From the NCBI GenBank assembly GCA_016186905.1, contig JACPKS010000084.1:2261-66260 (forward strand): a stretch of 64,000 nt of DNA. The letters are read 5' to 3'. The notes below the pieces were generated by a model, which ran no database searches, had not been told where the DNA came from, and saw only the letters and a list, made by a program, of their open reading frames with translations. Positions 16,979 to 63,340 of the stretch are shown piece by piece (position 1 is the stretch's first letter; each line of letters opens with the position of its first letter). Source of the DNA: Deltaproteobacteria bacterium. Its GTDB lineage: Bacteria; Bdellovibrionota; UBA1018; UBA923. A program made the translations under genes and the position numbers.

Positions 16979-16991
16979 ACGCTCTGAGATC

Positions 16992-17504: not shown

Positions 17505-17548
17505 GAAAGCAGGTTACTCGTAAAAGGGATACGCTGCAAGGGGGAACC

Positions 17549-36262: not shown

Positions 36263-36291
36263 TGAATTACTGATCAGGAATTATTATTTTT

Positions 36292-39348: not shown

Positions 39349-39356
39349 CATCAAAT

Positions 39357-40724: not shown

Positions 40725-41253
40725 TACGAATGAAAACATAGTGGGCGTTTTCGATACAGAGGAGGCTTTGATTAATGCCATCAAAAACATTAAGAAAAGC
40801 AGCTTTAAAATCAAGAATGTTTTTACTCCGTACCCGATCCATGAAGTATTTCATGAATTGGGTCTGACCACGCGGCTGCCTTGGCTCGCCTTTTTCTATG
40901 CCGTAGGCGGGACGATCCTGGTTTTCGCGTTTCTCTACTGGACGTCAGTGATCGATTATCCGATTTCCATCGGCGGCAAGCCGGATTTGTCCCCGTCGTT
41001 CATCATCGTCATGTTTGTCATGACGATTTTATTCGGGATCGTATTATCTTTAGTGACGTTTTTCACCGTCCAGAGGTTATATCCGGGAAAAGTTCCAGTC
41101 ATTATCCATGAAGACATCGTGGACGATAAATATGTAATCGTCATTGAAAAGAGTAATGCAATGACTGAACGTGATGTCGTGGCAATCAATAAATTATTCG
41201 TTTCAAACATGGCGATCGAAATAGGCCTTAAAAACGATGTCGAGGCGATATAA
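40711..41253 (+). CDS. actD: Alternative complex III subunit ActD (DUF3341)
   Basis: 180 aa with VGVFDTEEALINAIKNIK start, two TM segments. Position between actC and actE. Confidence 0.7.
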   Translation: MLKTDTNENIVGVFDTEEALINAIKNIKKSSFKIKNVFTPYPIHEVFHELGLTTRLPWLAFFYAVGGTILVFAFLYWTSVIDYPISIGGKPDLSPSFIIVMFVMTILFGIVLSLVTFFTVQRLYPGKVPVIIHEDIVDDKYVIVIEKSNAMTERDVVAINKLFVSNMAIEIGLKNDVEAI

Positions 41254-41255
41254 AC

Positions 41256-41828
41256 TTGAAAGACTTTAATTCAAAACATCTTTTGTTTTGCTGCCTGCTC
41301 TCAGTGTCTCTGGGGGCTTGTCAAAGGGATAGAAATCATCCGGGTTATAGATACCTGGATGATATGGTTCATTCCCCGGCCTATAGGTATTATTCTGAAA
41401 ACCCGAACTTCAAAGACGGCAAAACCGCGCAACCTCCCGTTCCAGGCACGATTGCGCGGGGGGCGGTTCCTTATCCCTATGCGAATACGATCGACGAGCA
41501 GAAAAGGGCTGGAAGAGAACTTGTCAATCCCATCGGCCATTCGCCGGAAGATATAAAAATAGGAAAAGAGAAATACGCAGTATACTGCGCCATGTGTCAC
41601 GGCGCTAAAGGTAAAGGGGACGGGAATCTGGTTCAGAGCGGGAAATTCGGAATGCCCGCTCCGCCGTTAGTCGCGGACTATGTTCAAAATGAGCCTGACG
41701 GCGCGATCTTTCACACGATCACTGTGGGTACGGTTTCCGGCTTGATGGGTTCGCATAGTCTCCAGCTAAAACCCTATGACCGTTGGCGTGTCGTAAAATA
41801 CATTAAAACCGGGCTAAAAAACGAATGA
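41256..41828 (+). CDS. actE: Alternative complex III subunit ActE (monoheme cytochrome c, lipoprotein-type signal)
   Basis: CAMCHGAKGKGDG heme site. Signal with LGAC. 190 aa. Confidence 0.8.
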   Translation: MKDFNSKHLLFCCLLSVSLGACQRDRNHPGYRYLDDMVHSPAYRYYSENPNFKDGKTAQPPVPGTIARGAVPYPYANTIDEQKRAGRELVNPIGHSPEDIKIGKEKYAVYCAMCHGAKGKGDGNLVQSGKFGMPAPPLVADYVQNEPDGAIFHTITVGTVSGLMGSHSLQLKPYDRWRVVKYIKTGLKNE

Positions 41829-42979
41829 ACTCCTCCGTGACCATGGACGATTCACGATTCAAAATCCCGCCTAAGTTAACGGCGGTATCCGTAATTTTGT
41901 TGGGTATCGGGATTGTTTCGGCCATTTCCGGATTTGCCAGTGACCCTGTCAGAATCTGGGGGAATGTTCTGATCTGCAATTACTATTTTATATGCCTGGT
42001 GATCGGAGCCACTTTTTTCGCGGCAATCCAGCGGATCACTCAAGCAGGCTGGTCAGCAATGTTTGAAAGAATCCCCGGGGCAATAAGCGGTTACATGCCA
42101 TTCGCGGCCGTTCTTACGCTGCTCATGGTTTTCTTCGGTACTCATTCCATCTATCATTGGTCGCCGCATAAAGCCTGGTACTTGAATTTTCCGTTTTTTT
42201 CGCTCAGGGCGGTCATTTTTCTCGGGGCCTGGCAATTCTTCATGCGCTTGCAGAGAAAGTTCTCGGTCAACGAAGATAAAGTGGGCGGACTGCAGAACTT
42301 CAAGAAGGCTGAATTCTACTCGCGAGTATATATTTTTGTTTTAGCGCCGACCTTTTCTTTAGCCTCGTTTGACTGGATCATGTCCATCGACAGCCACTGG
42401 TTCAGCACCATCTTCGCGATTATTAATTTTGTATCCGCTTTTTTACATGGTTCCGCTGCCATTATTTTAATAACGCTTATTTTACATAAAATGGGCTATT
42501 TCCCGCAGCTCAACTCCGCTCATCTTCACGACTTCTCCAAATATTTATTCATGTTATCCATCATGTGGGTTTATGTTTGGTTCAGCCAATATTTTCTGAT
42601 TTGGTACGGTAATATACCCGAAGAAACTATTTATTATGTTTCAAGAACCAGCCGTGAGTGGAATGCGACGTTCTTGGCCAACGTGATCATCAACTGGTGT
42701 TTTCCGTTCCTGTTTTTGATGAATAACCGGGTCGCGGGAAACATCAACGCGCTGATCGTGACTTCAGTGGTTTTACTCGTGGGCATGTGGCTTGATATTT
42801 ATATGCAGGTTATGCCCGGTTTAACAGGCAAGAACTCTTTCGGTATGATTGAATTAGGGATGTTTTTAGGCTTTTTGGGGATTTTCATCTTTGCTGTAAC
42901 AAGATCATTGAGTAAGGCTAATATTATCCCGGCAAATCACCCTTACCTGAATGAAAGTTTTTTGCATAAAGCACACTAA
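41825..42979 (+). CDS. actF: Alternative complex III subunit ActF (second NrfD-like membrane subunit)
   Basis: 384 aa polytopic membrane protein homologous in pattern to ActC. Overlaps the actE stop. Confidence 0.75.
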   Translation: MNSSVTMDDSRFKIPPKLTAVSVILLGIGIVSAISGFASDPVRIWGNVLICNYYFICLVIGATFFAAIQRITQAGWSAMFERIPGAISGYMPFAAVLTLLMVFFGTHSIYHWSPHKAWYLNFPFFSLRAVIFLGAWQFFMRLQRKFSVNEDKVGGLQNFKKAEFYSRVYIFVLAPTFSLASFDWIMSIDSHWFSTIFAIINFVSAFLHGSAAIILITLILHKMGYFPQLNSAHLHDFSKYLFMLSIMWVYVWFSQYFLIWYGNIPEETIYYVSRTSREWNATFLANVIINWCFPFLFLMNNRVAGNINALIVTSVVLLVGMWLDIYMQVMPGLTGKNSFGMIELGMFLGFLGIFIFAVTRSLSKANIIPANHPYLNESFLHKAH

Positions 42980-43013
42980 TTAATGTGAACGATCAAAGGA
43001 TTCAGGGTGTTTC

Positions 43014-45394: not shown

Positions 45395-46002
45395 GTACTT
45401 CCGTTGCTTCCCATCATTCCGATTACACGGGTGCAAAAATCGGGATGTGGCTTTTCCTTTTCACCGAGATTTTGCTGTTCGGAGGTTTGTTCCTGCTTTA
45501 CGCGGTTTACCGGGCGAAAAGTCCGGCGGAGTTTCACGAGGCGACCAAACACCTTCATTTGGCCCTGGGTTTGAGCAACACGCTGATTCTTTTGACGAGC
45601 AGCTTGACGGCAGCACTTTCGGTTTCCGCGATTCGAAGAGGACAGAAGTACTGGGCTCTCTGGGGGATAGGCGTTACGGTCGTCCTGGCGCTTGCGTTTC
45701 TCGTGAACAAATATTTTGAATGGAAAGAGCATATCGGCAACGGCATGTTTCCGGGCTCCCCAGCCCTCACGTCGCTCTCCCATGGCGAGAATCTGTTTTT
45801 TGGCCTCTATTACACGATGACGGGGCTCCACGGCGTTCACGTTTTGGCCGGGGCGGCCTTGCTTTGTGTCGTGTATGTTTTTGTTAATCGAGAAAAAGTG
45901 AACCAGCACAGCTATTCGCTTTTGGAAAACGCCTGTCTTTTTTGGCATCTTGTGGACCTGATTTGGATTTACCTTTTTCCGCTTTTTTATTTGGTGACTT
46001 GA
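45391..46002 (+). CDS. coxC: Cytochrome c oxidase subunit III
   Basis: 203 aa, 5-7 TM. Conserved MWLFLFTEILLFGGLF. Confidence 0.85.
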   Translation: MSTSVASHHSDYTGAKIGMWLFLFTEILLFGGLFLLYAVYRAKSPAEFHEATKHLHLALGLSNTLILLTSSLTAALSVSAIRRGQKYWALWGIGVTVVLALAFLVNKYFEWKEHIGNGMFPGSPALTSLSHGENLFFGLYYTMTGLHGVHVLAGAALLCVVYVFVNREKVNQHSYSLLENACLFWHLVDLIWIYLFPLFYLVT

Positions 46003-46004
46003 AA

Positions 46005-46289
46005 ATGGAACATGACACTCATCCGGCCGTACGGAATAAAACATTTATTAGCGTGTGGGCGATTCTTGTCGCTCTTACGATGGCTTCGGTAGGCGCGTCG
46101 AGTGTCCACGCGGGCACGGCGAGCCTCTTGGTTCCCTTGTTGATTGCCACCGTTAAAGCGAGTTTAGTGCTTTGGTTTTTCATGCATTTGAAATACGAAC
46201 GCGCTCTTTTCAAGGTCATGCTGCTCTTCCCGCTGGGTACGTTGGCCGTTATCATGGGTTTGACGTTCGTGGACACTTGGTTCAGGTAG
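46005..46289 (+). CDS. coxD: Cytochrome c oxidase subunit IV (caa3-type small subunit)
   Basis: 94 aa, two TM helices. Start ATG 46005; the ORF-track extension to 45942 overlaps coxC. Confidence 0.6.
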   Translation: MEHDTHPAVRNKTFISVWAILVALTMASVGASSVHAGTASLLVPLLIATVKASLVLWFFMHLKYERALFKVMLLFPLGTLAVIMGLTFVDTWFR

Positions 46290-46295
46290 GAGAAC

Positions 46296-47222
46296 ATGAT
46301 TACCGGGTGGCCAAATCTCTGGAATTCGACCGATAACGCCTTCTATTTCATCATTGCCATATCCATCGTTCTTTTGCTCGGGATCATGGCAACAATGATT
46401 TTTTTCGTGTTTCGATATTCTCGCAGCCGAAACCCGCGACCAACCAACATCGAACACAACGCCTGGCTTGAGATCTTGTGGACGGCCATCCCCACGGTTC
46501 TGGTGCTCGCGATGTTTTGGGTCGGCTGGAAGGGTTTCATTTACAAAAGGACTGTTCCCGCGGGGGCCATGCAAGTCAAGGTAACCGGACGGATGTGGTC
46601 GTGGTCGTTCGAATACGAAAACGGCAAAATCAGTTCGGTATTAAAGCTGCCATTCGGAAAGCCCGTAAAACTTCTGATTACTTCGGCGGACGTGGTGCAC
46701 GGCGTTTTTATTCCCGCGTTTCGCGTAAAAGAAGACGCCGTTCCCGGCAGAGACACCTACTTGTGGTTTCAACCCGATAAGACCGGGGAGTTCGAGCTTT
46801 TCTGCAGCGAATTTTGCGGGACTGGCCATACAAAGATGGTGAGCACAGTAGAGATTATTCCCGAAAATGAGTTTGCGGTCTGGCTTCAGCAAAAAGAGAC
46901 CCCCGCTTTGGCGCAAGGCTTGTCGCAAGCGGGGCTCGGTGCCGAGCTGGTGCGCGCGAAGGGTTGCGTTGCTTGTCACAGTACCGACGGAACCGCGGCC
47001 ACTGGCCCGACGTTCAAGGGGCTATGGGGCAAGAAGGAGACCGTGCTCAGGGGATCTCAGGAAGCGCAGGTGACCGTGGATGAGAGCTTTGCGAGGAGCA
47101 AGATTTTTTCTCCTGAAAAGGAGCGCATCAAGGGATTTCCGCCCATCATGCCGTCGCAACGGGGCGTTCTATCCGAAAAAGAGGCGGCAGCGATCGTGGA
47201 GTATTTCAAAACACTGCGATGA
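46296..47222 (+). CDS. coxB: Cytochrome c oxidase subunit II fused to a C-terminal cytochrome c domain (caa3-type)
   Basis: CuA site FCSEFCGTGHTKM plus C-terminal CVACHSTDG heme c site. Confidence 0.9.
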   Translation: MITGWPNLWNSTDNAFYFIIAISIVLLLGIMATMIFFVFRYSRSRNPRPTNIEHNAWLEILWTAIPTVLVLAMFWVGWKGFIYKRTVPAGAMQVKVTGRMWSWSFEYENGKISSVLKLPFGKPVKLLITSADVVHGVFIPAFRVKEDAVPGRDTYLWFQPDKTGEFELFCSEFCGTGHTKMVSTVEIIPENEFAVWLQQKETPALAQGLSQAGLGAELVRAKGCVACHSTDGTAATGPTFKGLWGKKETVLRGSQEAQVTVDESFARSKIFSPEKERIKGFPPIMPSQRGVLSEKEAAAIVEYFKTLR

Positions 47223-48076
47223 GGAACCTTCTCGTTTTCACCAAAGCCCGCATCTCCTTGCTGGCCGGGTTCTCGGCCGCGACTGGGTACCTTCTTTCTC
47301 CCGGGAGATCTTCAGGCGATCTATTCTTGCTCTTCGCGGGAGTCGTGATCCTGGCGGGCGGCTCGTCCGCGCTCAATCAGTGGCAAGAATGGCGAACGGA
47401 CGCTTTGATGGAGCGGACGCGGAATCGCCCGATCCCAAGAAAAGCGTATTCTCCTGATCATGGCTTTCTGGTCGCGGCCGTGTTTTTGCTGCTGGGAATC
47501 TCGCTCGTCCAGATCGTGAGCGCGGGAGCCGCCACCGCGCTCGGCGCATTGGCGGTTCTTTGGTACAACGGCGTCTACACTCCGTTGAAACGCGTGACCG
47601 CGTTTGCCGCGGTTCCCGGGGGATTGGTCGGCGCGATTCCGCCGGCGATCGGTTTTGTCACGGGCGGCGGCGCCCTTGGCGATCCACGCATTCTCGGCGT
47701 GGCCGCCGTTCTTTTTATCTGGCAGATTCCGCATTTCTGGCTGTTGCTGCTGAGATTCGGCCCCGACTACGAGCAAGCCGGATTTCCGACGCTGACTCAG
47801 GCGCTGGGAGAAAATGGCGTGAAGCGGGTTACCGTGACGTGGTTGTTCGCTACCGTGGCTTTCATGTTCGCGCTCCCGCTTTTTGGAGTCGTGCCGGCGG
47901 GTTATTTGCTCGTTTCAGTCAGTCCGGTTGCCATCTGGTTATTGGTCAGGGCTTGGAAGCTCCTGCGCGAAACCGAGGAAATGTCCGCGAAACTGGGTGG
48001 CCAGGCGTTTCATGCCATTAACCTGCTGCTTCTGGTACTGATGGGATCGCTGTCTTTGTCGCGGTGGCTTTCCTGA
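47219..48076 (+). CDS. ctaB: Protoheme IX farnesyltransferase (heme O synthase, UbiA family)
   Basis: UbiA prenyltransferase TM pattern, DAxxDR-like RNRPIPRK region. Downstream of cox genes with ATGA overlap. Confidence 0.85.
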   Translation: MRNLLVFTKARISLLAGFSAATGYLLSPGRSSGDLFLLFAGVVILAGGSSALNQWQEWRTDALMERTRNRPIPRKAYSPDHGFLVAAVFLLLGISLVQIVSAGAATALGALAVLWYNGVYTPLKRVTAFAAVPGGLVGAIPPAIGFVTGGGALGDPRILGVAAVLFIWQIPHFWLLLLRFGPDYEQAGFPTLTQALGENGVKRVTVTWLFATVAFMFALPLFGVVPAGYLLVSVSPVAIWLLVRAWKLLRETEEMSAKLGGQAFHAINLLLLVLMGSLSLSRWLS

Positions 48077-48118
48077 AAATAGATGATTTCGTCTTAACTG
48101 TCGTGGTAATGATTTTCC

Positions 48119-49273
48119 ATGCCTTCAGAGACGCATCTTGCTCAAAAGCTTGTTCAAAAGAGTGTCCGAAAATTTCTCCAGACCGAACTGCTTCCCAATG
48201 TTGATCAGTGTAACGAAGAGGGCATTTTTCAGGAAAAGGCCTTCCGCGATTTTTTTAAAACGGGTTTTGGCGCGTCTTTCATGCCCGAGGAATGGGGCGG
48301 AGACGGCGACCTTCTTTCCTATCTGGATATCGCGACGGAAATGGGCCGGGTGGATCTCGGATTCGCCCTGTCGGTCATGGCCAGCGCCGTGCTCTTCGGG
48401 AACAACGTGCTTCTGCACGGAACCTCGGAACAGAAAAGGAAATACCTGCCCGGAATCGTCGACGGTTCGAAGATCGGCTGCTGGGCGCTTACCGAGCCTT
48501 CGGGCGGCTCTGACGCCGTCGGCATCAAAGCCACGGCGGAAAGGAAGGGCGATCATTATCTGATCAACGGAGCAAAGACCTTTATCACCAACGCGCCGGT
48601 TGCCGATTACTTTATCGTTCTCGCGCGTCTGAAGGGAACTGAGAACAAAGGAATCGCGGGTGGCTGCGCCTTCATTCTGGAGAAAGGGATGAAGGGCTTG
48701 AGCACCGGAAAGCCGCTCAAGAAAATGGGCCATAAGACGAGTCCCACGGGCGAAATTTTTCTGGAAAACGTGGAGGCGCCGGAAAGCTCGCTCCTGGGCG
48801 CCGAAGGCCAGGCTTTTCAAGACATGAAGCGTTCGCTGGATCTCGAGCGAGCCACTTTTTCACAAATCGGCTTCGGGTTGATCGATGAACTGCTCTCGAT
48901 CATGGTGAAGTATGCGGCCAGCCGAAAATCTTTTGGCCGCGCGATCCTCGAGTATCAGCTGATTCAGGAAAAAATCGCGCGGATCGGCGCGGAGTTTGAA
49001 GTGCTTAAAGCCTATGGCATCCAGCTTCGCGAGAAGCTCGTTCGCGGCGAGAAGATCACCAAGGAAGCCGCGATCATGAAATTGCTCCTTTCGAAGCTCT
49101 CGGTGCGCGCCGCCGACGAGGCGATTCAGATCCTGGGCGGCTACGGCTACATGACGGAATACCGGGTCGAGCGGTTTTATCGTGACGCCAAACTCTATGA
49201 AATCGGCGGCGGGACGAGTGAAATCCAGAAGCTTGTCATCGCAAAAGAGATCGCAAAGGAATACCTCGCATGA
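48119..49273 (+). CDS. Acyl-CoA dehydrogenase
   Basis: ACAD motifs WALTEPSGGSDA, KTFITNAP, and C-terminal YEIGGGTSEIQKLVIAKEI. Confidence 0.9.
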   Translation: MPSETHLAQKLVQKSVRKFLQTELLPNVDQCNEEGIFQEKAFRDFFKTGFGASFMPEEWGGDGDLLSYLDIATEMGRVDLGFALSVMASAVLFGNNVLLHGTSEQKRKYLPGIVDGSKIGCWALTEPSGGSDAVGIKATAERKGDHYLINGAKTFITNAPVADYFIVLARLKGTENKGIAGGCAFILEKGMKGLSTGKPLKKMGHKTSPTGEIFLENVEAPESSLLGAEGQAFQDMKRSLDLERATFSQIGFGLIDELLSIMVKYAASRKSFGRAILEYQLIQEKIARIGAEFEVLKAYGIQLREKLVRGEKITKEAAIMKLLLSKLSVRAADEAIQILGGYGYMTEYRVERFYRDAKLYEIGGGTSEIQKLVIAKEIAKEYLA

Positions 49274-50820
49274 CCGCCGGTTTGTTTAAAATGGAAGCGC
49301 TCAACCGGATTCAGGAAGAGAAAAAGAGAAATCTCAAGATGGGCGGCGTTGATGCGGTCGCAAGGCAAAAGGCGCATGGAAAACTCAACGTGCGTGAGAG
49401 GATCGATTTGCTGGCGGACCCCGCCTCCTTTTTGGAGTTCGGCCTGCTGGCGGATCATGCTTCTTCGAATCTCGAACTGAGCGGCAAGCTCGCCCCTGCC
49501 GACGGGGTCATCACCGGCACCTGTCTGGTCGAGGGACGCCCGGTCGCGGTGGCCGCTTATGATTTTACGGTGCTCGCGGGTTCGATGGGAGAAGTCGGCG
49601 AACGCAAAGTGGAACGCATACGCAGGCTAGCACTTGAGAGCCGCATTCCCATGGTCTGGCTTTTGGATTCGGCGGGCGCGAGAATTCAGGAAATAGCCGG
49701 CGCGCGCTTCGCGGAAACCGGCGGCCTCTTTTACGAACAGGTGGAACTCTCGGGCGTGGTCCCCCAAGTCGCCGCGGTCATGGGGCCAACTGCTGCCGGC
49801 ACCTCCTACATCGCCGCTCTGGCCGACTATACGCCGATGGTCAAAGGAGCCGGAAGCATGGCGCTTGCCGGGCCTCCGCTCGTCAAAGCCGCTATCGGCG
49901 AGGACGTCACCACCGAGGACCTGGGCGGTTCCAAAATCCACTGCCAGATCAGCGGCTGCGCCGACGGCGAGTTTCAAAGCGACGGGGATTGCATCGCCGC
50001 CGTGAGGAAATATCTGGGATTTTTCCCCTCCCACTGCAAAGACAAGCCGCCGGTTCGCAGGGATGTGCGCGGGCTGAAACTGCCGATCGCCGATGACATC
50101 TTGGCGGTCCTGCCGGAGGAGCCGCGCAAGGCGTACGACATGAAGAAGATCGTGGGGCTGATTTCCGACCACGGGGATTTCTTTGAGATCAAACCCGACT
50201 TCGCGAAAAACATCATCACCGGTTTCGCCCGGATCATGGGACATCCGATCGGCGTTTTGGCGAATCAGCCTTCGCAGATGGGCGGAGCCATCGACGTGGA
50301 TGCGAGCGACAAGGCGACCCGGTTTTTACTCACGTGCGACGCATTCCGGATTCCCGTGCTCTTCCTGCATGACTGTCCCGGATTTCTCGTGGGTTCCAGG
50401 GCCGAGAAAATGGGAATCATCCGGCACGGCGCCAAGTTCCTTCACGTGGTCGCGAGCCTTACCGTGCCCAAGCTCAGTGTTGTCGTGCGCAAAAGTTACG
50501 GCGCGGGCTACTATGTCATGTGCGGCAAGGGCTTGAAGCCGGACTTGATCGTGGGCTGGCCGAGCGCGGAAATTTCGCTGATGGGCGCGGAAGGCGCGGT
50601 CAACATCGTCATGAAAAACAAGAATGACGCCGATGCCAAGGCCGCGAAAGTCGCCGAGTACAAAGCCAATATCGGGGGACTCCTTTCGGCAAGGCAAGCC
50701 CACATCGATGACCTGATCGACCCTCGCGAAACGAGACAAGTCCTCTTTCGCGCGCTCACGTATACCTTGAACAAGCGGCAGCCCCGGTCCTGGCGCAAAC
50801 ATGGCGTGATGCCGGTATGA
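49270..50820 (+). CDS. Acyl-CoA carboxyltransferase-domain protein (PccB/AccD5/GcdA family)
   Basis: Two carboxyltransferase half-domains (AYDFTVLAGSMGEVGERKVERIRRLA...). No biotin-carboxylase or BCCP gene adjacent. Confidence 0.85.
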   Translation: MTAGLFKMEALNRIQEEKKRNLKMGGVDAVARQKAHGKLNVRERIDLLADPASFLEFGLLADHASSNLELSGKLAPADGVITGTCLVEGRPVAVAAYDFTVLAGSMGEVGERKVERIRRLALESRIPMVWLLDSAGARIQEIAGARFAETGGLFYEQVELSGVVPQVAAVMGPTAAGTSYIAALADYTPMVKGAGSMALAGPPLVKAAIGEDVTTEDLGGSKIHCQISGCADGEFQSDGDCIAAVRKYLGFFPSHCKDKPPVRRDVRGLKLPIADDILAVLPEEPRKAYDMKKIVGLISDHGDFFEIKPDFAKNIITGFARIMGHPIGVLANQPSQMGGAIDVDASDKATRFLLTCDAFRIPVLFLHDCPGFLVGSRAEKMGIIRHGAKFLHVVASLTVPKLSVVVRKSYGAGYYVMCGKGLKPDLIVGWPSAEISLMGAEGAVNIVMKNKNDADAKAAKVAEYKANIGGLLSARQAHIDDLIDPRETRQVLFRALTYTLNKRQPRSWRKHGVMPV

Positions 50821-50836
50821 AAAGCGGCCTCCAAAT

Positions 50837-51706
50837 ATGAGTGCCGGCGATAAAGTCATTCTCACCTGCGCCATTACCGGAGTGCTCACGGATCCCAAGT
50901 TTCATCGAGTCCCCGTCACTGCTGAAGAAATGGCCGATGCGGCTGAAGAAGCCTACAACGCTGGCGCAGCCGTGGTGCATTGTCATTTTCGAGAGCAGGA
51001 ACCCGGTCAGGGGGCAAAGCCTACGTGGGACGTCCCGGTGGTAAGCGAGATTTGCAGCGCCATCCGGCGGCGAGTTCCAAAAATCATTCTCAATATGTCC
51101 ACGGGTGTCGTGGGGCCCGATATCTCAGGGCCAGCGGCCTGTCTGAGGGAAATCAAACCCGAACTAGCGGCGCTCAACGCGGGTTCCTTGAATTATCTGA
51201 AAACCAGAAAAGACGGAAGCTGGGCTTGGCCTCCGATTCTCTTCGATAATCCGATCGAGAAAATTTCGTCTTTTCTGAAGGTCATGAAAGAAAACGGGAT
51301 TCGCGCGGAGTGCGAATGTTTCGATACGGGGATTTTGCGCGGTGTCGGCATGATGAGGGCGAATGGTTTATTGGAAGATCCGCTTGAGATCTCGCTCGTC
51401 ATGGGCGTGAGCAGCGGGATGCCCGCCAAGCCTGCCTGGTTGCCGCTGCTTTTAGAGGAAATGCCGGAGGGCGCGCAGTGGCAGGTGATTGCCATAGGTC
51501 AAAAAGAAGTTTGGGATCTGCACCGCAAGGCCTGTGGGCTTGGCGGAAATTTGCGGACCGGGGTTGAGGATACGTTTTATCTTCCGAGCGGTGAGAAAAC
51601 CTACTCCAATGGAAAGTTGATCGAGGCCCTGGCCGAAGTCGTAAGAGAGCAGGGGCGCGAGGTGGCCACCGCGGATGAAGCACGGAAGCTTTATCAGTTG
51701 GCTTAG
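50837..51706 (+). CDS. BKACE-family beta-keto acid cleavage enzyme (3-keto-5-aminohexanoate cleavage enzyme-like, DUF849)
   Basis: VILTCAITGVLTD N-terminus, TIM-barrel BKACE pattern (HCHFRE, ILNMSTG, ECECFDTG). Confidence 0.8.
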   Translation: MSAGDKVILTCAITGVLTDPKFHRVPVTAEEMADAAEEAYNAGAAVVHCHFREQEPGQGAKPTWDVPVVSEICSAIRRRVPKIILNMSTGVVGPDISGPAACLREIKPELAALNAGSLNYLKTRKDGSWAWPPILFDNPIEKISSFLKVMKENGIRAECECFDTGILRGVGMMRANGLLEDPLEISLVMGVSSGMPAKPAWLPLLLEEMPEGAQWQVIAIGQKEVWDLHRKACGLGGNLRTGVEDTFYLPSGEKTYSNGKLIEALAEVVREQGREVATADEARKLYQLA

Positions 51707-51714
51707 GGTGACGC

Positions 51715-52473
51715 ATGCCCGCTGAATTGGTTTTCGAAATCAAGGATTCCACCGCATTCCTGGCCTTGAACAGGACGGCGAAGAAAAACGCCCTGGATGG
51801 CGCATTGCTGCGGATGCTCCTTGACCGCCTCGATGAAATCGAAAAAAACACCGAAATTAAAGTTGTGGTTTTAAAATCCGCCTCGCGCGATTTTTTCTGC
51901 GCGGGCGCCGATTTAAGTGGGATGAAAAACATGGAGCAGGCCGCGGCCGATCTGAAGCTCTTTGCCGCCGTTCTGAAACGACTCTACGGCTTGAATAAAC
52001 CGAGCATTGCCCAGGTGAGCGGCGTCTGCATGGGCGGTGGGTTGGGGCTCGCGTTGGCCTGTTCGCTCACGGTCGCGAGCAGGGATGCGGTCTTCAGCAC
52101 GCCGGAGATTCATCTGGGCTTGTATCCTTTGATGATTTCCCCCCTGATCCATGCCCATTGCAACAGCCGAAAAAAGGCCGATCAGTTCATCATGACCGGA
52201 GAGAGATTTTCAGCGGCGCAAGCTTTGGGTTTGGGAATGTTAAATGACGTCGTCGCGGATATCGATCTGGAGCGCCGGGTTGATGAGCTGATCCAGGCGT
52301 TGGGGAAAGCCGATCCGGAAGTCATCGATCTCGGGAAAAAAGCGGTCCGAGATTCGGAAGGGCGTTCTTTCGGTGAAGCAGTTGACGGGCTTTGCTTGAG
52401 ACTCCAGGACTTGCTTGCGCTTCCCGGCACTCAAAAGCGGATCCTTGCATTCTTGAAACCAGGGATATCGTGA
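51715..52473 (+). CDS. Enoyl-CoA hydratase/isomerase (crotonase) family protein
   Basis: ALNRTAKKNALD ... FFCAGADLSGM oxyanion-hole motifs. Confidence 0.85.
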   Translation: MPAELVFEIKDSTAFLALNRTAKKNALDGALLRMLLDRLDEIEKNTEIKVVVLKSASRDFFCAGADLSGMKNMEQAAADLKLFAAVLKRLYGLNKPSIAQVSGVCMGGGLGLALACSLTVASRDAVFSTPEIHLGLYPLMISPLIHAHCNSRKKADQFIMTGERFSAAQALGLGMLNDVVADIDLERRVDELIQALGKADPEVIDLGKKAVRDSEGRSFGEAVDGLCLRLQDLLALPGTQKRILAFLKPGIS

Positions 52474-52496
52474 GCCAGAAAATCTGGCGGGGCGGA

Positions 52497-55400
52497 TTAC
52501 CGCAACGGGATGGCAGGCAGGCCGTTTCCGAGCGAAAGAGGCGTTAGGCCGATATTCTGGCTGTGTCCTAATCCTAGCTGGCCGTATCCATTGTAGCCCC
52601 AGCATTTGATCTGGTTGTCGTCGAGAGTCGCGCAGGTGTGGTGTGTGCCGGCCGCGATGTCGATGGCTTTGAGCGTTCTGCCGCCCGCGGCGGTTCCTGC
52701 GCCAGTATCGGTTCCGAGGTCCACCGCGACAAGCCGGTCACCCATGTCGCCCGAGTAGTAGCCGTGGTTTTGGCCGCCGTCGGGAATGCCAAGTTGGCCG
52801 TTAACGCCGTAGCCCCAGCACTTCACCCGTCCGTTGTCGAGCAGCGCGCAGGAATGGTAGAAACCAAGTGCTAGTTTTTTGGCCGTACGATTCGTGCCGA
52901 GATCGACATAAGGAAGAGAATCGCCCATCTCGTGGCCGGACGTCCCGCTATCGCCGCGGTTTACCGAATTGCCGGTTCCGAGCTGACCGTAGCCGTTGTA
53001 TCCCCAGCACTTCACTTTGCTGTTGCCCAAAATCGCGCAATTGTGCCCATACCCTGAGTCGACTTGAACCGCGGTAAGCGCGCCTCCCGTGCCGTCGCCA
53101 TTTACGGTGCCGAGATTAACGTACGGAAGGTTATCGCCCATCTGGTGGCCGGCGGCAGCACTATCGCCGCGCGGGGTGGTATCGCCAAGGCCTAGCTCCC
53201 CGTTGGAATTGTAGCCCCAGCACTTCACGCGGCCATTGCTCAGGATCGCGCAGTTATTGAGCACGCCGGAAGCCTGCACGGCCACGAGCGCGCCGCCCGT
53301 GCCGTCGCCGCCCACCGTTCCGAGGTTGACGTATGGAAGATTATCGCCCATCGTGCCGCCTTGGCCGCGATAGTCGGTATTTTCGTAGCCAAGCGAGCCC
53401 CAAGCGCCGTAGCCCCAGCATTTCAGGTGCGAGCCGGAAGCACTGTCATCCAAGATCGCGCACGCGTGATAAGCGGTTTGCTTGATGGACTTCACCGTGC
53501 GCCCGGTTCCGAGATCGACGTAGGAAAGCGCATCGCCCATCTGGTGGCCCGCGGCCGGCGAGTCGCCGCGGTTGGTTCCGTCGCCAAGGCCCAAATTGTA
53601 ATATCCGGTGTTGTAGCCGAAGCATTTCATTTTTCCGCTGTTCATCAGCGTGCAAACGGATTGGGCGCCGGCTCCCATTTTCACGTCGATGGCGTAATCA
53701 GTGCTCGAAAGATTGATGGACTCAAGGCTTGGCCCCATCTCGCCAGGCTCATCGCCGACCCATGGATTGCGCGAAACCGAGTGGTAGGAATCGTTGCCTG
53801 AGGCCTGACCCCAGCACTTCACGCGCCCGCTCTGCAGCAGCGCGCAGGTGTGGGAGTTGCCGGTTGAGATCATCGCTGGTTTGTCGTTTACGCCGCTGCC
53901 TAAGTTTATTTGCGGAAGGTCGTCGCCCATCAGGTGCCCGGCGCTCATGTTGTCTCCGCGATTGACGGTGTCGCCAAGGCCTAGCTGGCCGTAGGCGTTG
54001 TAGCCCCAGCACTTCATCCCCCCGTCATCCAGAATCACGCAGCTGTGGTTTGCGCCCATGGCGATCGCGGTGGCCGTGCGCCCAGTGCCCAGGCTCACGT
54101 ACGGAAGATTATCGCCCATCGTGCCGGCGGCATTTCCGTAATTGGTGGTGTTGCCAAGGCCAAGCTCGCCGCTTCCGTTGTTGCCCCAGCATTTAACGAG
54201 ATCATTGTCGAGAATCGCGCAAGCCTGGAGGTGGCCTACGGCAAGATGCTTTGCCGTGCGCCCCGTGCCAAGGCTCACGTAGGGGAGGTTGTCTCCCATC
54301 GTGCCCAGGCTACCGCCGCGATCAGTCGTATTTTCGTAGCCAAGATTGCCCCAGTCGTTTCGGCCCCAGCATTTCACGCGCGAGCCTGCTGCGCCGCTAT
54401 CGAGGAGCGCGCAGGTGAAATCGTAGCCTGCCGCGATTTCGACCGCGGTGCGGCCGGTTCCAAGATCGACGGGGCCTGTCGGAGTGGTGCGGGTCGCGGT
54501 GTCGCCAAGACCTAGCTCACCGTAGCCGTTGTAGCCCCAGCACTTCACGGTGCCGTCATCCAGGAGCGCGCAGGCATGGAGGCGGCCTACGGCAACCTGG
54601 ACTGCCGTGCGTCCGGCTCCCAGGTTCAAAAACGGCATGTTGTCGCCCGAAGTGCTTAGGTAGTAGCCGTAAGCCGTAGTGTCGCCCGTGCCAAGATTGC
54701 TGTAGTAGTTGGGACCCCAGCATTTCACTTTCCCGGCATTTGCACCCGAGAAAATCGCGCAGTTAAAACCGTTGTAGTCGTTGGTGAGACTGCTTTTGAT
54801 CGAGGCCACGGTTTTTCCGGCGCCAAAGAGCGCGAAGGGAAGGAGATTTCCCATGCTCCAGAGACTCGCACCGTAGCTCGTGGCATTGGTGGCGTTTGCT
54901 AGAGCGCCGTAGCCGTTGTAGCCAAAGCATTTGACATTTCCGTCGGTGAGCACGGCACAGGTGTAGTATTGGCCGGCCAGGATGGATGTCGCAAGCCACG
55001 GGTTGTTCAAGCTATCCGTGCCGAAATCGACTGCCGGCAAATTATCGCCCATTTGTGAGGACTTTGCTCCGAGATAAGCTTTCTCGTTTCCGAGCTGGCC
55101 GTAATTATTTCGGCCAAAGCATTTCGTGTTGCTTGAAGTCGAGGAAGTCGGGTCGACAACACACGTGGAAGCGTCGCCGGCGGCGATTTTTCGGGGAAGA
55201 AAAACGTGGATCGTGATGGTCGTCACGTGACTGTTGGAATCGGAAACCTGCACGGTAGTACTCGCGGGGCTTGAGGTGAGGGTCGCGGGCGCCGTGAATT
55301 GCGCCGTGTTTGTGCCGGTGTTGAGTGTGCCGCCGCCTGCGAGCAGCGTGAACGAGTAGGGCGCGCTCCCACCTGAAAGCTCGAGGGTAAGCGTGCCTCC

Positions 55401-58400
55401 AGCCACGAGCGAGCGGGCGGTGGTGACAGGCTGATCGAAATCGTAGACCAGATTATCGCTGCTGGTCGCGCCGGCATAGACGTTGTCTTGCGGAACGGTG
55501 GGGGATAGCGTGTAAGGAAGATAATCGCCCAAGGTAAGCGGGTTGTCGCCCGTGTTGGCTGTTGCCATTCCGATTCCAAGCTGGCCCCAGGCGTTGTAAC
55601 CCCAGCATTTGACGCCATTGTTGTCGAGAACGGCGCAGGTGTAATAGTTACCGGCGAAAACGTCGAGCGCGGTTCTTCCGGTGCCAAGATTTACGGCACG
55701 AAGATTATCGCCCATCTCGCCGGCCTGATTGCCGATGTTGTCGTTATTGCCGCTCTTATCGCCAAGGCCTAGCTGGCCCCAGGCGTTGTAGCCCCAGCAC
55801 TTGATCTGATTGTTGTCGAGTACGGCGCAGGTGTGATAAATGCCGGTCACGACTTTTTTGGCGGTTCTTCCGGTTCCGAGATCGACAAAGGGAAGGGCGT
55901 TTCCCATCAGGTGGCCGGCGGCAGTGCTGTCGCCGCGATTGACGGTGTCGCCAATGCCTAGCTGGCCGTAGATGTTGTAGCCCCAGCACTTGATTTTGCC
56001 GCCCGCGATGAGCGCGCAAGAGTGGGTATAGGAGGTGGAAAGCTGCGTCACCTGCCAGGGATTGTTCGAGCCATCAGTGCCCAGATTCACGAAAGGAAGG
56101 TTGTCGCCCATCGTATTAGGAGCATTACCTCGTGGGTCGCTGTTGCCATACCCGAGGTTTCCCCAAGGATTCGGACCGTAGGGACTGTTGCCCCAGCACT
56201 TCACACCTCCGTTTGAAAGTAGCGCGCAGTGATACGCGTAATAACCGCTGCTGACTTGCTTTGCGACCAGGGGCGTGCCGCCGATTCCGTCCACCGTTCC
56301 GAGATTCACGTAGGGAAGAGTGACGAGATCTTGAAAATAATAATAACCATTCGTGTTCTCAAGGCCTAGCTGTCCGTATTCGTTTGCGCCCCAGCATTTC
56401 AGATGCGAATTCTGGCCTGCCCCGTCGTCTAGAATCGCGCATGTGCTTGAATTATTGGACGCACCCGTGGCAACCTGTTTTACGGTGCGGCCAAAACCCA
56501 CGAACGCGGTGGGGAGCCCGTCGCCCATCGTGCCTAGCTTGTCGCCATGGTAGGGAAAGCTGTTGGCTGGCGGCTCGCCGCCGGTTCCAAGCTGGCCGGC
56601 GCTGTTTGCGCCCCAACATTTGAGTTCTCCGGTGTTGAGAATCGAACAGGTGTACTGGTCGTTGCTGGAGTTGGCTTCGATGTCGGTGGCATAGCGGTTT
56701 GTTCCAAGATTGACCGTCTTGCTGCCGGCCATCTCGCCGGGTGCGTCGCCAAGTGTCGCGTTCTCATTGCCAAGCGCTCCGTAGTCGGTCGTGTCGGTTT
56801 GCACCGAGCCCCAGCACTTGACCGTGTTGTTGTCGAGAAGCGCGCAGGTGTTGTCGTGCTGGGGAGCGATGTCTTTGACCGTACGGCCCGAACCGAGGTC
56901 CACGTAGGCAAGGTTGTCGCCCATATTGTTTAAGCTTCCACCGACGTTATTTAAGTGGCCAAGACCTAGCTGGGCGAAAGTATTGAGGCCCCAGCATTTC
57001 AGATGCGAGTTTAAGCCTGCGGCGTCGTCCAGAATCGCGCAGGTGTGGTGGTTGCCCAGTTTTATTTTCTTCACGGTGCGGCCTGTACCCAGGCTTACGT
57101 AGGGGAGCTGATCGCCCATCTCGCCGGCTACCGCGCCGATGCTATACCAAGGGCTCGGGTACTGGGAGGAGCTGGAATTGATGCCGCTTCCAACCTGCCC
57201 GTAATTGTTGTTGCCCCAGCATTTGAGTTTATCGTTATCGAGGATCGCGCAGGTGTGCTCGGAGCCGCATGAAATCGCCTTAGCCGTGCGGCCCGTCCCA
57301 AGATCGACAAACGCAAGCGCGTTGCCCATTTCGCCGGCTTCGTCTCCGATGTTGGCTTTGCTTGCGGAATTATCTCCAAGACCTAGCTGGCCGTAGTTGT
57401 TTCTTCCCCAGCACTTGACCTTGTCGTTGTTCAAAATCGCGCAGGTGTGGCCAAAACCCGCGGCGATGGCTTTGGCGTAGTAGGGATTGCCGCTTCCATT
57501 TCCGGCATCATCGCCGAGATCGACGATGGGCCCTGGCGAGAAGCGGTTGGCCGTGTCGCCGTATCCAAGCTGGCCTTGGTAACCGTTGTACCCCCAGCAC
57601 GTCACGCGCGAGCCTGAGGCACCGCTGTCCAGGATCGCGCAGGCATGAAGCGAGCCGTAGGCCAGGTCCGTTGCCGTGCGGCCCAAGCCGAGATTTACGA
57701 ACGGGATATTGTCGCCGCTTATGAAAGGATAATAACCGTAACCGTAAGAGTAATACCAACTGGTGCTGTCCCCAACGCCTACGGTTCCGTAGGAGTTATT
57801 GCCCCAACATCGCACCTTGCCAAGATCGGTGCCATTCAAGATCGCGCAGCCGCCGCTGCCCTGGGGATTTGCGGCGATTTTGAACGCCGTTTTTCCGGTT
57901 CCCAAAAGCAGATACGGAAGATGATCGCCCATCTCGTTGGGAAAGAGTCCGAAGTTCCGGCCAGAGCTGGCGTTTCCAAGCGCGCCGCTACCGTTGTAGC
58001 CCCAGCCCTTGGCCGTGCCGCTCGTGAACTTCACGAACGCTCCCGCATACCCGCCCACGATTGAATCCGGCACGAGGCCTGTGCCGAGTTTTATGGGAGA
58101 AAGCGCATCCCCCATTTCGCCCGCTTGATCGCCGATCGCGAAGGTTTCATCCCCGCGCTGGCCATACTGGGAACGTCCCCAGCAGTTGACCGTGCTTGAC
58201 GTGAGGCTCGCGCGCGTGAGCGCGCACGCGTGCTCGGAACCCAGTGCCAGTTTTCTCGGAACGAACGCGTGGACCGTGGTGTCTGAGGTATTCCCCCCGC
58301 CGTCGGTTACGCGAATCACGCTGTCTCCCGGAGCGGCGCCGGCGGTAAACGTCGTGCTTGTAGGGCCCGAGCTCAAAAACCCGCCGCCCAGCACGATCGA

Positions 58401-63154: not shown

Positions 63155-63340
63155 TGAAAAAAGCGCCTCCAGGTACTTAACTATCGGTCTTTTTATGTAA
63201 ATACTTGATATAAACACTGTACTATTTTATCTGCAAGCGATGTGGAATCTCAAAAAAACATGACTTTGATACTCAAAGGGTTTTTAAAATTTGTTAATTT
63301 ATATGAACTATCACCGTGCTTCGCCCTGAAAAACCAAGAA

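Follow-up and report, generated by a model that had tools for sequence, protein, structure and literature searches.

[quoted passage not shown] On the basis of sequence comparisons, we tentatively propose that they form a compact version of a recurrent acyl-CoA catabolic module that is linked to a biotin carboxylase and follows Liu/Atu logic. The substrates of this module would most likely be branched fatty acyl-CoAs rather than glutarate.

The four plus-strand open reading frames are co-directional and nearly abutting, and Pfam typing bore out the gene content given in a first-pass annotation of this DNA. The features are:

48077..48118, plus strand: 42-nt spacer between ctaB and the ACAD gene, read directly from the sequence
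48119..49273, plus strand: ACAD, 384 aa, IVD-type catalytic architecture (Pfam ACAD N/M/C, E 1e-24 to 1e-39)
49270..50820, plus strand: acyl-CoA carboxylase beta subunit (CT), 516 aa, 'GAGYYVM' family (Pfam Carboxyl_trans, full-length, E 6e-139)
50837..51706, plus strand: BKACE (Pfam PF05853, E 6e-80)
51715..52473, plus strand: crotonase-superfamily protein, 252 aa, single-Glu type (Pfam ECH_1, E 2e-39)

The CT start overlaps the ACAD stop by 4 nt (ATGA), and gaps of 16 nt and 8 nt separate CT from BKACE and BKACE from the crotonase gene; given these close junctions, a single operon is very likely. Upstream, ctaB (heme O synthase) ends 42 nt before the ACAD gene. A scan of positions 45900-52800 detected no sigma-70-like promoter or terminator-like site in the spacer, and the cox/ctaB and ACAD genes may lie on one transcript. 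Downstream, 23 nt past the crotonase gene, lies the end of a giant RCC1-repeat gene in convergent orientation. Three further sequencing runs independently gave assemblies with the identical four-gene order, so an assembly chimera is excluded. The window belongs to the core chromosome, and its other large open reading frames were typed by Pfam as housekeeping and respiratory genes only. The genomic setting is aerobic, with ACIII and caa3 oxidase genes in the neighbourhood. The CT had been described as lacking an adjacent BC/BCCP; this was confirmed for the full 64 kb, where tblastn with BC/BCCP alpha subunits found none. None of the four operon proteins reached an NCBIfam equivalog cut-off.

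By overall similarity, the CT is assigned to the alpha-carboxylating PCC/MmdA/12S class and not to MCC/GCC. Its PDB matches were 1vrg (435 bits), PCC (407), 12S (397) and ScPccB (394), with MCC/GCC types at 270-285 bits and no GcdA chain at E<=1e-30, so that the suggested GcdA type was not recovered. Locally, shifts in the oxyanion and acyl-pocket motifs (AAGT; GAGYYVMCG) make the CT resemble MccB: the acyl-pocket motif SYGAGYYVMCGKG is closer to MccB SYGAGNYGMCGRA than to PccB FGGAYDVMGSKH, and the position of ScPccB D422, the PccB specificity residue, is occupied by Tyr. The CT clade is tight (66-88% identity), and has members from Bdellovibrionota and 'Deltaproteobacteria' MAGs; in every context examined, an IVD-type ACAD, a BKACE or both were linked to it.

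The best PDB matches of the ACAD were IVD (4o5m, 240 bits) and butyryl-CoA DH (4l1f, 239 bits), GcdH structures reaching only ~150 bits. Its motifs SLDLER and LYEIGGGTSEI align with LDYER and LYEIGAGTSEI of IVD, the BCD/SCAD-type counterparts being LDGGR and IYEGT. The canonical base position holds no Glu (GGGTSE), which is the base arrangement of IVD, the classic example of an ACAD acting on a beta-branched substrate. Orthologues with 64-79% identity were located in ACAD-CT-BKACE triads (L042-L049), and the same base arrangement is common to the ACADs of triads and of MCC-type clusters.

In the crotonase, the oxyanion hole (FFCAGADL) and the second hydratase Glu (TPEIHLG) are kept, and Gly stands at the first (GGGLGLALAC). 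Because this Glu is missing, a plain crotonyl-CoA hydratase is unlikely; first-Glu-less crotonases include non-hydratase C-C-bond enzymes. In a set of 5.8 billion proteins its next best homologue shares 48% identity with it, making it a near-orphan. The single-Glu signature was found at the other loci too, in every BKACE-linked ECH.

These signatures were compared with the scheme originally put forward for the operon, in which a non-decarboxylating glutaryl-CoA dehydrogenase (GDH) would form glutaconyl-CoA, a GcdA/MmdA-type CT would decarboxylate it to crotonyl-CoA and the crotonase would hydrate this to 3-hydroxybutyryl-CoA. BKACE, which had no role in that scheme, might supply glutaryl-CoA from 3-oxopimelate. 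The lack of a local BC/BCCP is in keeping with such a decarboxylase, as are the NCBIfam rankings, with mmdA the best match of the CT (494 bits, far under the cut-off of 999) and the Desulfococcus non-decarboxylating GDH model third for the ACAD (235 against a cut-off of 470). However, all three enzymes carry contrary signatures: PccB-type enzymes dominate the CT matches, the ACAD base position is IVD-type (LDLER, GGGTSE) rather than GDH-type, and the crotonase lacks one hydratase Glu. In addition, no gcdB/C/D-like membrane decarboxylase subunits are found nearby, the neighbours being aerobic respiratory genes (ACIII, caa3 oxidase), and homologous systems have BCCP and BC, i.e. are carboxylases. 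We consider the glutaryl-CoA scheme extremely improbable, and it was set aside on the grouping of the CT and the ACAD.

BKACE scored 199 bits against the NCBIfam Kce equivalog, under the cut-off of 382. A check of its active site showed that it retains every catalytic and Zn residue of Kce (H46, H48, R50, S82, N108, E141, E143, R226, E230, D231), while Leu, Ala and Phe replace E14, T106 and Y145, respectively. Leu at the amine-binding Glu14 of Kce, together with the full catalytic set, would fit a neutral alkyl beta-keto acid as substrate. The protein is 72-74% identical to BKACEs of Bdellovibrionales MCC/liu-like clusters and 58-67% identical to those of double-CT clusters, but only 36-41% identical to the BKACE filling the same slot in orthologous triads. 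Two BKACE subfamilies, about 38% identical, alternate in this one slot; that of the window is subfamily A, whose other occurrences are in carboxylase operons of the MCC/liu-like and double-CT kinds.

Gene neighbourhoods were compared in 11 distinct CT-anchored contexts and 40 BKACE-anchored loci. CT and BKACE were linked in 10 of the former (L042-L044, L046, L048-L051, L056), L052 being the only one without BKACE, and in 24 of the latter, covering several phyla and three CT classes. Of all links in the module, that between neighbouring CT and BKACE genes is the best conserved, and the stop of one often overlaps the start of the other. In Bdellovibrionota relatives, ACAD-CT-BKACE is a portable three-gene core, conserved in otherwise unrelated neighbourhoods. 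The triad is intact in L042, L043, L044, L048 and L049; in L046 and L051 the ACAD is missing and a single unrelated gene stands between CT and BKACE, and in L050 BKACE lies ~6 kb from ACAD-CT, beyond toxin-antitoxin and other inserted genes. The families that recur across phyla are CT, BCCP/BC, single-Glu crotonase, IVD-type or AidB-like ACAD, SDR and BKACE. A housekeeping juxtaposition, with the CT as propionyl-/acetyl-CoA carboxylase beta subunit, ACAD and crotonase as generic beta-oxidation enzymes and BKACE as an unrelated neighbour, is strongly disfavoured by this synteny. The core-chromosome location and the PCC class of the CT would suit it, and other bacteria commonly share an alpha subunit in trans, e.g. 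mycobacterial AccA3. Nevertheless, the translational coupling of the genes and the family-specific signatures (GAGYYVM in the CT, IVD-type base in the ACAD, single-Glu crotonase) also speak against it, and we judge it highly unlikely.

Subfamily-A BKACEs also occur in bona fide Liu/Atu-like operons. In Bdellovibrionales, the order is MerR(LiuR-like)-MccB-MccA-ACAD-BKACE-ACAD-SDR, with a CT that scores 535 bits against human MCC beta. A Haematobacter plasmid cluster carries an MCC/GCC-type CT, alpha subunit, single-Glu ECH, two-Glu hydratase, ACAD, GST and BKACE, along with a CoA ligase and an SDR. No HMG-CoA-lyase-like gene was found among the typed neighbours of module loci (Pfam lists, annotation). 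Homologous clusters of three other architectures include BCCP and/or BC, which points to biotin-dependent carboxylation, and not a decarboxylase, for the homologous system. L056 has BCCP and no BC, and neither was found within about 10 kb of the Bdellovibrionota triad contexts (L042-L050, L052).

In the pathway we propose, the IVD-type ACAD would desaturate a short acyl-CoA, probably with a beta (3-) branch, and the CT beta subunit would carboxylate the resulting CoA ester with carboxy-biotin from a BC/BCCP encoded elsewhere in the genome. The single-Glu crotonase would act on the carboxylated enoyl-CoA by hydration and possibly by HCHL-like retro-aldol cleavage, or a housekeeping hydratase/lyase would perform part of this step, giving acetyl-CoA and a free beta-keto acid, R-CO-CH2-COO-. 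Most triads have no adjacent crotonase, and there this step would therefore rely on genes elsewhere. By its canonical reaction, BKACE would convert the beta-keto acid and acetyl-CoA to R-CO-SCoA and acetoacetate, so that the carbon skeleton re-enters the CoA pool at no cost in ATP. The triad-native BKACE would, in the window lineage, have been replaced by the other carboxylase-associated subfamily and the crotonase added. Because the HMG-CoA lyase reaction yields acetyl-CoA and a free beta-keto acid, Liu/Atu-type cleavage releases both together; this hydration/cleavage is the sole known point of acyl-CoA catabolism that co-yields the two BKACE substrates. The Atu/Liu steps are summarised in PMC4097962. 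With leucine as substrate, the beta-keto acid would be acetoacetate and the BKACE reaction degenerate, so the true substrate must be another.

The Liu/Atu-like reading is suggested by the operon packing, the conserved triad, the IVD-type ACADs, the subfamily-A BKACEs in Liu/Atu-like operons, the MCC-like acyl-pocket motif of the CT, the hydrophobic residue of BKACE at the amine-binding position of Kce, the BCCP and/or BC of other architectures, the joint release of both BKACE substrates by Liu/Atu-type cleavage and the failure to find HMG-CoA-lyase-like genes among typed neighbours. Against it stand the overall PCC/MmdA/12S class of the CT, gamma-carboxylation by this family being only putative, the absence of BC/BCCP within 64 kb here and ~10 kb of the Bdellovibrionota triads, the lack of an adjacent crotonase in most triads and the degenerate BKACE reaction in the case of leucine. 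Double-CT ('type II') clusters, in which the catalytic motif is PCC-like and an ACAD is lacking, also suit it poorly.

Alternatively, BKACE could be the entry step, converting a free hydrophobic beta-keto acid (3-oxopentanoate, beta-ketoisocaproate or 5-methyl-3-oxohexanoate) and acetyl-CoA to a short acyl-CoA and acetoacetate. The acid would perhaps come from an SDR acting on a 3-hydroxy acid or an aminotransferase acting on a beta-amino acid; ACAD and crotonase would oxidise the acyl-CoA, and CT with a shared alpha subunit would carboxylate propionyl-CoA (PCC-type clusters) or methylcrotonyl-CoA (MCC-type clusters), pulling the reversible BKACE reaction forward. This agrees with the global PCC similarity of the CT, the CT-BKACE adjacency and the SDRs and class-V aminotransferases that recur beside the clusters. 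One promiscuous hydrophobic BKACE would suit both kinds of partner, and BKACE group G1 is tied by context to valine/leucine interconversion via beta-ketoisocaproate. Yet it gives no source of the free beta-keto acid and leaves unexplained the IVD-type signature of ACADs beside PCC-class CTs and the missing hydratase Glu of linked crotonases; the clusters hold none of the other enzymes of the valine/isoleucine pathway (hydrolase, dehydrogenases, thiolase). We regard BKACE as an entry step as doubtful.

A biosynthetic, chain-extending role appears improbable. Here the carboxylase would make (alkyl)malonyl-CoA, and crotonase and BKACE would form C-C bonds with it or with acetoacetate, by CarB-like decarboxylative condensation or reverse BKACE chemistry (acyl-CoA + acetoacetate to a longer beta-keto acid + acetyl-CoA), towards a specialised lipid or metabolite. 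The non-hydratase C-C-bond enzymes among first-Glu-less crotonases would allow this, and a fatty-acid desaturase adjoins the L049 triad and GNAT acyltransferases lie 3' of double-CT clusters. The BKACE reaction is reversible, the reverse direction serving as an assay in PMC11961710, and NetSyn labels the proteobacterial counterpart 'probably fatty acid biosynthesis', with a fatty-acid desaturase among its neighbours (bioRxiv 10.1101/2023.02.15.528638). However, neither desaturase nor GNATs are conserved across architectures, the window cluster has no carrier protein, thioesterase or condensing enzyme, and the IVD-type ACADs, LiuR-like MerR regulator, CoA ligases and FadB/thiolase neighbours have a catabolic appearance.

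Among known systems, the Liu/Atu pathways of Pseudomonas likewise place an ACAD (LiuA/AtuD), the CT subunit of a biotin-dependent carboxylase (LiuBD/AtuCF) and a crotonase-family hydratase (LiuC/AtuE) in one operon, with LiuE as lyase (PMC4097962). The window ACAD shares the IVD-type catalytic arrangement, and sister clusters with the same BKACE subfamily have genuine MCC/GCC-type CTs, alpha subunits and a MerR/LiuR-like regulator. In contrast, the window operon has BKACE in place of an HMG-CoA-lyase-type gene, its CT is PCC-class overall rather than MccB/AtuC-class with no alpha subunit nearby, and its crotonase is without one of the two hydratase glutamates. PccB/MmdA/12S enzymes (PDB 1VRG, 3N6R, 1ON3, 1XNY) are the best overall matches of the CT and share its full-length architecture, but the CT differs in Tyr at D422, shifted AAGT/GAGYYVMCG motifs, the lack of an adjacent alpha subunit and the linkage of its family to IVD-type ACAD and/or BKACE. 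Kce (PDB 2Y7D-G), which cleaves 3-keto-5-aminohexanoate in lysine fermentation, has fold, family, Zn ligands and catalytic residues in common with the window BKACE, which however scores only about 127 bits to it, has Leu for the amine-binding Glu14 and has no lysine-fermentation genes nearby. A described counterpart is BKACE 'G3 / NetSyn cluster 1', flagged 'Pathway to discover' in a supplementary table, with acyl-CoA dehydrogenase, carboxyl transferase, 'carbamoyl-phosphate synthase', enoyl-CoA hydratase, CoA ligase, SDR, GST and fatty-acid desaturase as neighbours (bioRxiv 10.1101/2023.02.15.528638); the earlier remark that a BKACE in such a cluster fits no known pathway therefore holds. The 'carbamoyl-phosphate synthase' is the biotin carboxylase ATP-grasp domain, and all the listed families also surround the BKACEs examined here. 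That group was described from alpha- and beta-proteobacteria, together with a small number of actinobacteria, that have full carboxylases, whereas the window holds a minimal four-gene form without BC/BCCP, in a Bdellovibrionota-like MAG, with another CT family and a swapped BKACE subfamily. The operon is one version of a widespread bacterial module that pairs a biotin-type carboxyltransferase with a beta-keto acid cleavage enzyme.

Four genes on the forward strand (48119-52473) lie precisely where the first-pass annotation had placed them and form a genuine operon:

48119-49273, + strand: three-domain acyl-CoA dehydrogenase, ACAD (Pfam)
49270-50820, + strand: carboxyltransferase, CT, full-length Carboxyl_trans domain (Pfam, E 6e-139)
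50837-51706, + strand: BKACE/DUF849 protein (Pfam, E 6e-80)
51715-52473, + strand: crotonase-family protein, ECH, domain ECH_1 (Pfam, E 2e-39)

The CT start overlaps the ACAD stop (ATGA), and gaps of 16 and 8 nt separate CT from BKACE and BKACE from ECH. Genes for alternative complex III, a caa3-type oxidase and heme O synthase (ctaB) precede the cluster on the same strand, ctaB ending 42 nt before ACAD, and a convergent RCC1-repeat gene (2,370 aa) ends 23 nt past ECH. Promoter and terminator scans of the cluster region gave no usable operon boundary. The remainder of the window is core chromosome, and the nearest relatives of the ACAD and CT are found in Bdellovibrionota MAGs. We considered an assembly artefact as the origin of the odd BKACE and ruled it out, as the identical gene order was assembled independently in three other sequencing runs.

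Some features of the surroundings were recorded separately. The G+C content of the alternative complex III genes (36000-43000) is 43-50%, compared with ~58-62% for the rest of the window, and the cox/ctaB genes and the four-gene cluster, at 52-60%, fall in between; the low value of the complex III block could reflect either horizontal acquisition or membrane-protein composition. On the reverse strand, RCC1/RLD repeats make up almost the whole of two giant ORFs (52497-63217; 2,370 and 1,299 aa); both also match the SprB repeat model, weakly and below threshold. The ORFs share 292 nt (59318-59609), read in different frames. They may be tandem paralogues, or else one gene of >3,600 aa interrupted by a frameshift or sequencing error.

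The ACAD resembles isovaleryl-CoA dehydrogenase (IVD). Its best structure matches are IVD (240 bits) and, by a marginal difference, butyryl-CoA dehydrogenase (239 bits), against ~150 bits for GcdH structures and 210 bits for Desulfococcus Gdh; the NCBIfam Gdh model gives 235 bits, with a cut-off of 470. At the canonical C-terminal base position (equivalent to MCAD E376) it has Gly (GGGTSE), which sets it apart from glutaryl-CoA dehydrogenase, and together with the Glu in helix-G LDLER this is the base arrangement of IVD/LiuA. In the alignment, SLDLER / LYEIGGGTSEI of the window protein corresponds to LDYER / LYEIGAGTSEI of the IVDs 4o5m and 4kto; the motifs at these places in 4l1f and 5lnx are LDGGR or LNVGR / IYEGT. 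In SCAD, MCAD and BCD the catalytic base lies within YEGT. NCBIfam lends no support to IVD orthology, because NF008594/PRK11561, the sole IVD-named model among those matching the ACAD at E<=1e-10, scores 51 bits against a cut-off of 545. Equivalog cut-offs of NCBIfam were reached by none of the four window proteins or eight homologues.

The CT is full-length and closest to the PCC/MmdA/12S class: structures of PCC beta, MmdA-like proteins and transcarboxylase 12S match it at 395-435 bits and those of MCC/GCC beta at just 270-285 bits, which places it outside the MCC/GCC clade. The Asp that marks PccB specificity (ScPccB D422 in GGAYDVM; position read by alignment to 3ib9/1xnw, D422 mutants) is replaced by Tyr in GAGYYVM. 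Its acyl-pocket motif, SYGAGYYVMCGKG, is closer to SYGAGNYGMCGRA of MccB than to FGGAYDVMGSKH of PccB, and the MCC-like character is confined to the local motif GAG-x-Y-x-MCG(R/K). By these residues the protein is not a canonical PccB. We asked whether the altered motifs were specific to a BKACE-linked clade and rejected this, since GAGYYVM and AAGT are common to all 120 closest homologues; for the same reason we regard the CT as a member of a distinct family without a solved structure. Only secondary positions (F49A, G85C, A179S, P182A, V188T, R449K, K450N, R457K) are clade-specific in BKACE-linked CTs. A plasmid-database search with the window CT returned only generic PccBs at <=42% identity. 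As the first-pass annotation had noted, no biotin carboxylase (BC) or biotin carrier (BCCP) adjoins the CT, and tblastn finds neither anywhere in the 64-kb window.

Hydratases of the crotonase family use two catalytic glutamates (GGGxE...PE; E144/E164 in rat ECH). In the window crotonase the oxyanion hole is intact and the second Glu is present (TPEIHLG), but Gly takes the place of the first (GGGLGLALAC), so that the two-Glu arrangement of enoyl-CoA and methylglutaconyl-CoA hydratases is lacking; a second crotonase in a related Haematobacter cluster (ECH2) has the canonical two-Glu form. The window protein is thus predicted to be something other than a plain hydratase. It is also nearly unique: among 5.8 billion proteins the best non-self match is 48% identical and all others <=44%, in contrast to the accompanying ACAD and CT, which have relatives at 70-88% identity.

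These properties bear directly on the scheme of the first-pass annotation, in which a GcdH-like ACAD, a GcdA-type decarboxylase and a crotonase would convert glutaryl-CoA via glutaconyl-CoA to crotonyl-CoA and beyond. On that annotation's own terms the scheme fails, with a PccB-like CT, an IVD-like ACAD, and a crotonase that is apparently no plain hydratase. No GcdA chain occurs among the 44 PDB sequences matching the CT at E<=1e-30, and the sister systems of the cluster are biotin-dependent carboxylases with BCCP and BC. The subunits encoded by gcdB/C/D (membrane Na+-pumping beta subunit and small biotin carriers) were searched for and are absent from the 64 kb, the neighbours being alternative complex III, caa3 oxidase, ctaB and RCC1-repeat proteins. 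We now consider this route the least credible of the readings weighed here.

The BKACE is full-length and has the Zn ligands H46, H48 and E230 (Kce numbering), together with the catalytic E143, D231, R226 and S82. Relative to Kce, the BKACE of lysine fermentation, it has Leu at the amine-binding Glu14 and the changes T106A and Y145F. Retention of the catalytic and Zn residues with loss of Glu14 identifies it as a genuine BKACE whose substrate is probably a hydrophobic, non-aminated beta-keto acid, which it is predicted to cleave with acetyl-CoA to acetoacetate and an acyl-CoA. It is not Kce itself: the NCBIfam equivalog gives 199 bits (cut-off 382), the amine-binding Glu is missing, and the lysine-fermentation genes kam, kdd and kal are absent from the window. 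To our knowledge, acetyl-CoA and acetoacetate are the two ligands that every BKACE binds. In the published mechanism the nucleophile is the beta-keto acid rather than acetyl-CoA; because of this, and because all canonical residues are retained, a role as an HMG-CoA lyase analogue, which this ligand pair had suggested, is kept only as a sub-variant. An acetoacetate-activating role was rejected, as the reaction on acetoacetate and acetyl-CoA is degenerate. The substrates of the BKACE groups have been summarised, and some members (group G6) are reported to decarboxylate rather than cleave (PMC4922564).

BKACE-anchored scans of genomes and metagenomes yielded 40 non-self loci with BKACEs 58-74% identical to that of the window. 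Carboxylase parts adjoin the BKACE in 24 of them, and 32 of the 40 have at least one of CT, BC, ECH and ACAD. Type I clusters (Bdellovibrionales and others) comprise a MerR/LiuR-like regulator, an MccB-type CT (535 bits to human MCC beta), a BC-BCCP alpha subunit, ACAD, BKACE, a 584-aa ACAD and an SDR. Type II clusters (Poribacteria, Myxococcota and uncultured lineages) contain a CoA ligase, two CTs (CTa and CTb), BKACE, ECH, BCCP (LETMKV), BC and GNATs. CTa and CTb are both PCC-class, and the motif of CTb, the second tandem paralogue (8079-9635 in the type II locus L016, and homologues), is degenerate (AYSSGSMILSGKGL, compared with SYGGSNIVMGASKM in CTa), which points to a partner subunit with a specialised role or no catalytic one. 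A few kb from the L016 cluster with its Zn-dependent BKACE lie genes for zinc uptake (ZnuA, ABC-3 permease; 16545-18588), probably by coincidence. In cultured Haematobacter massiliensis OT1, plasmid pOT1-4 (locus HmaOT1_RS18800-18830) has genes for an MCC/GCC-type CT, an alpha subunit, a single-Glu ECH, a two-Glu hydratase, a 588-aa ACAD, a GST and a BKACE of the window's subfamily (A), with a divergent operon encoding an IVD-type ACAD, SDR, CoA ligase, FadB homologue and thiolase. Unlike the window CT, those of the type I and Haematobacter clusters fall within the MCC/GCC clade.

CT-anchored look-ups showed that the window ACAD (64-79% identity) and CT (70-83%) are orthologous to those of a portable ACAD-CT-BKACE triad, whose carriers include the genomes GCA_040754655.1, GCA_964364175.1 and GCA_051382295.1. 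In Bdellovibrionota relatives the triads occupy unrelated neighbourhoods, in every case without BC or BCCP; no BC-BCCP alpha subunit lies within ~10 kb in contexts L042-L050 and L052. Accessory genes differ from triad to triad, one having an SDR and another a fatty-acid desaturase; ECH is usually absent. The CT-BKACE linkage persists in other lineages at 56-61% CT identity. The triad BKACE belongs to a second subfamily (B), at just 36-41% identity to the window protein, and we therefore conclude that in the window lineage the third gene of the triad was displaced by a BKACE of the type I/II kind and a crotonase was added. The active-site signatures of subfamilies A and B are identical. In Bdellovibrionota bacterium FG-1 (L050, 11659-17900), ~6 kb with AAA_14/DUF4143 ATPase, methyltransferase and ParE/Phd toxin-antitoxin genes parts the ACAD-CT pair from BKACE, so this triad appears split by insertion.

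A further context, L056, combines a single-Glu ECH, a CT with GAGYFVM, a B-type BKACE, a 74-aa BCCP, an AidB-like ACAD and a class-V aminotransferase. The BCCP gene (ESMKM; 11427-11651, also in L057) overlaps the BKACE stop codon and lies beside the CT; within 9 kb there is no biotin carboxylase. Class-V aminotransferase genes adjoin BKACE-carboxylase clusters in unrelated lineages (L001-L004, 2650-3900; L056, 13475-14608), perhaps a sign that the pathway takes in or releases an amino or keto acid. The class-V aminotransferase of the window itself (8163-9341) lies beside mnmA; it is probably a cysteine desulfurase of the IscS type, unrelated to these clusters.

Across the triad, type I/II, Haematobacter and L056 loci, the linked ACADs carry the IVD-type base, a signature conserved in triad and type I ACADs, and the linked ECHs lack the first Glu; IVD-type ACAD and single-Glu crotonase are the two unusual signatures of the module. 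An HMG-CoA-lyase-type enzyme is consistently absent, none having been found among the typed neighbours of ~20 loci. The window and roughly 55 related loci show that the BKACE-CT link is ancient and modular, spanning three CT classes, two BKACE subfamilies and several phyla, and the module is predicted to be biotin-dependent. That four such genes came together by chance is highly improbable.

We tentatively favour a route like the Liu/Atu pathways of leucine/isovalerate and acyclic-terpene utilisation, whose canonical steps have been described (PMC4097962). The IVD-type ACAD would desaturate a beta-branched acyl-CoA, the carboxylase, with an alpha subunit supplied in trans, would add CO2, a crotonase-family step would hydrate and/or cleave the product to acetyl-CoA and a free beta-keto acid, and BKACE would turn these into a shortened acyl-CoA and acetoacetate. 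Such a route would explain the co-occurrence of the families, the lack of an HMGL-type lyase, the adjacency of BKACE to both ECH and CT, and the source of a free beta-keto acid. Against it stand the PCC-class scaffold of the window CT, the absence of ECH from most triads and the absence of ACAD from type II clusters. Its main rival, which we think rather unlikely, reverses the order: BKACE would be the entry step, making an acyl-CoA that ACAD, ECH and CT then process.

A NetSyn preprint (bioRxiv 10.1101/2023.02.15.528638) describes exactly this neighbour set for BKACE G3 'cluster 1' of alpha- and beta-proteobacteria (ACAD, carboxyl transferase, 'carbamoyl-phosphate synthase', ECH, CoA ligase, SDR, GST and fatty-acid desaturase), under the label 'Pathway to discover, probably fatty acid biosynthesis'. 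A biosynthetic role for the window cluster seems to us quite unlikely; like the glutaryl-CoA scheme and chance juxtaposition, we rank it below the Liu/Atu-like route and the BKACE-entry order. Literature searches on BKACE (DUF849, Kce) in connection with carboxylases, MCC or ACAD turned up no solved pathway. The view of the first-pass annotation that with a BKACE present the pathway cannot be predicted from known schemes still stands.

BKACE/DUF849 is a large family whose carboxylase-associated context is explicitly on record as a pathway yet to be discovered, and the window operon is a minimal, re-tooled member of this widespread, unsolved module. The comparative signatures narrow the candidate chemistries to a small testable set, headed by Liu/Atu-like branch removal ending in acetoacetate and a shortened acyl-CoA. 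A solution would say what thousands of proteins annotated as 'acyl-CoA carboxylase beta' or '3-keto-5-aminohexanoate cleavage protein' do, and could show how predatory and environmental bacteria break down branched or isoprenoid acids.

The other, less likely candidate is a new kind of transcarboxylase, an idea that arose because L056 is a BCCP cluster without BC. Here CT, a small biotin carrier and a BKACE-fold protein would form an ATP-independent, biotin-dependent enzyme: by decarboxylation, the BKACE homologue would move the carboxyl of a Zn-chelated beta-keto acid such as acetoacetate to biotin, from which the CT would hand it to an acyl- or enoyl-CoA. Such an enzyme would account for the many clusters of CT and BKACE without biotin carboxylase, for the BCCP gene of L056, and for the interchangeability of BKACEs of two subfamilies beside the same CT. 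Decarboxylation is reported for some members of the BKACE family (group G6; PMC4922564). Against the idea, the residues needed for the canonical acetyl-CoA-dependent reaction are all retained, BC is present in other architectures, and BKACE and the 5S subunit have unrelated folds; we judge it very unlikely. Compared with the 12S/5S/1.3S enzyme of Propionibacterium, such a transcarboxylase would have a Zn TIM-barrel BKACE homologue in the place of the 5S subunit.
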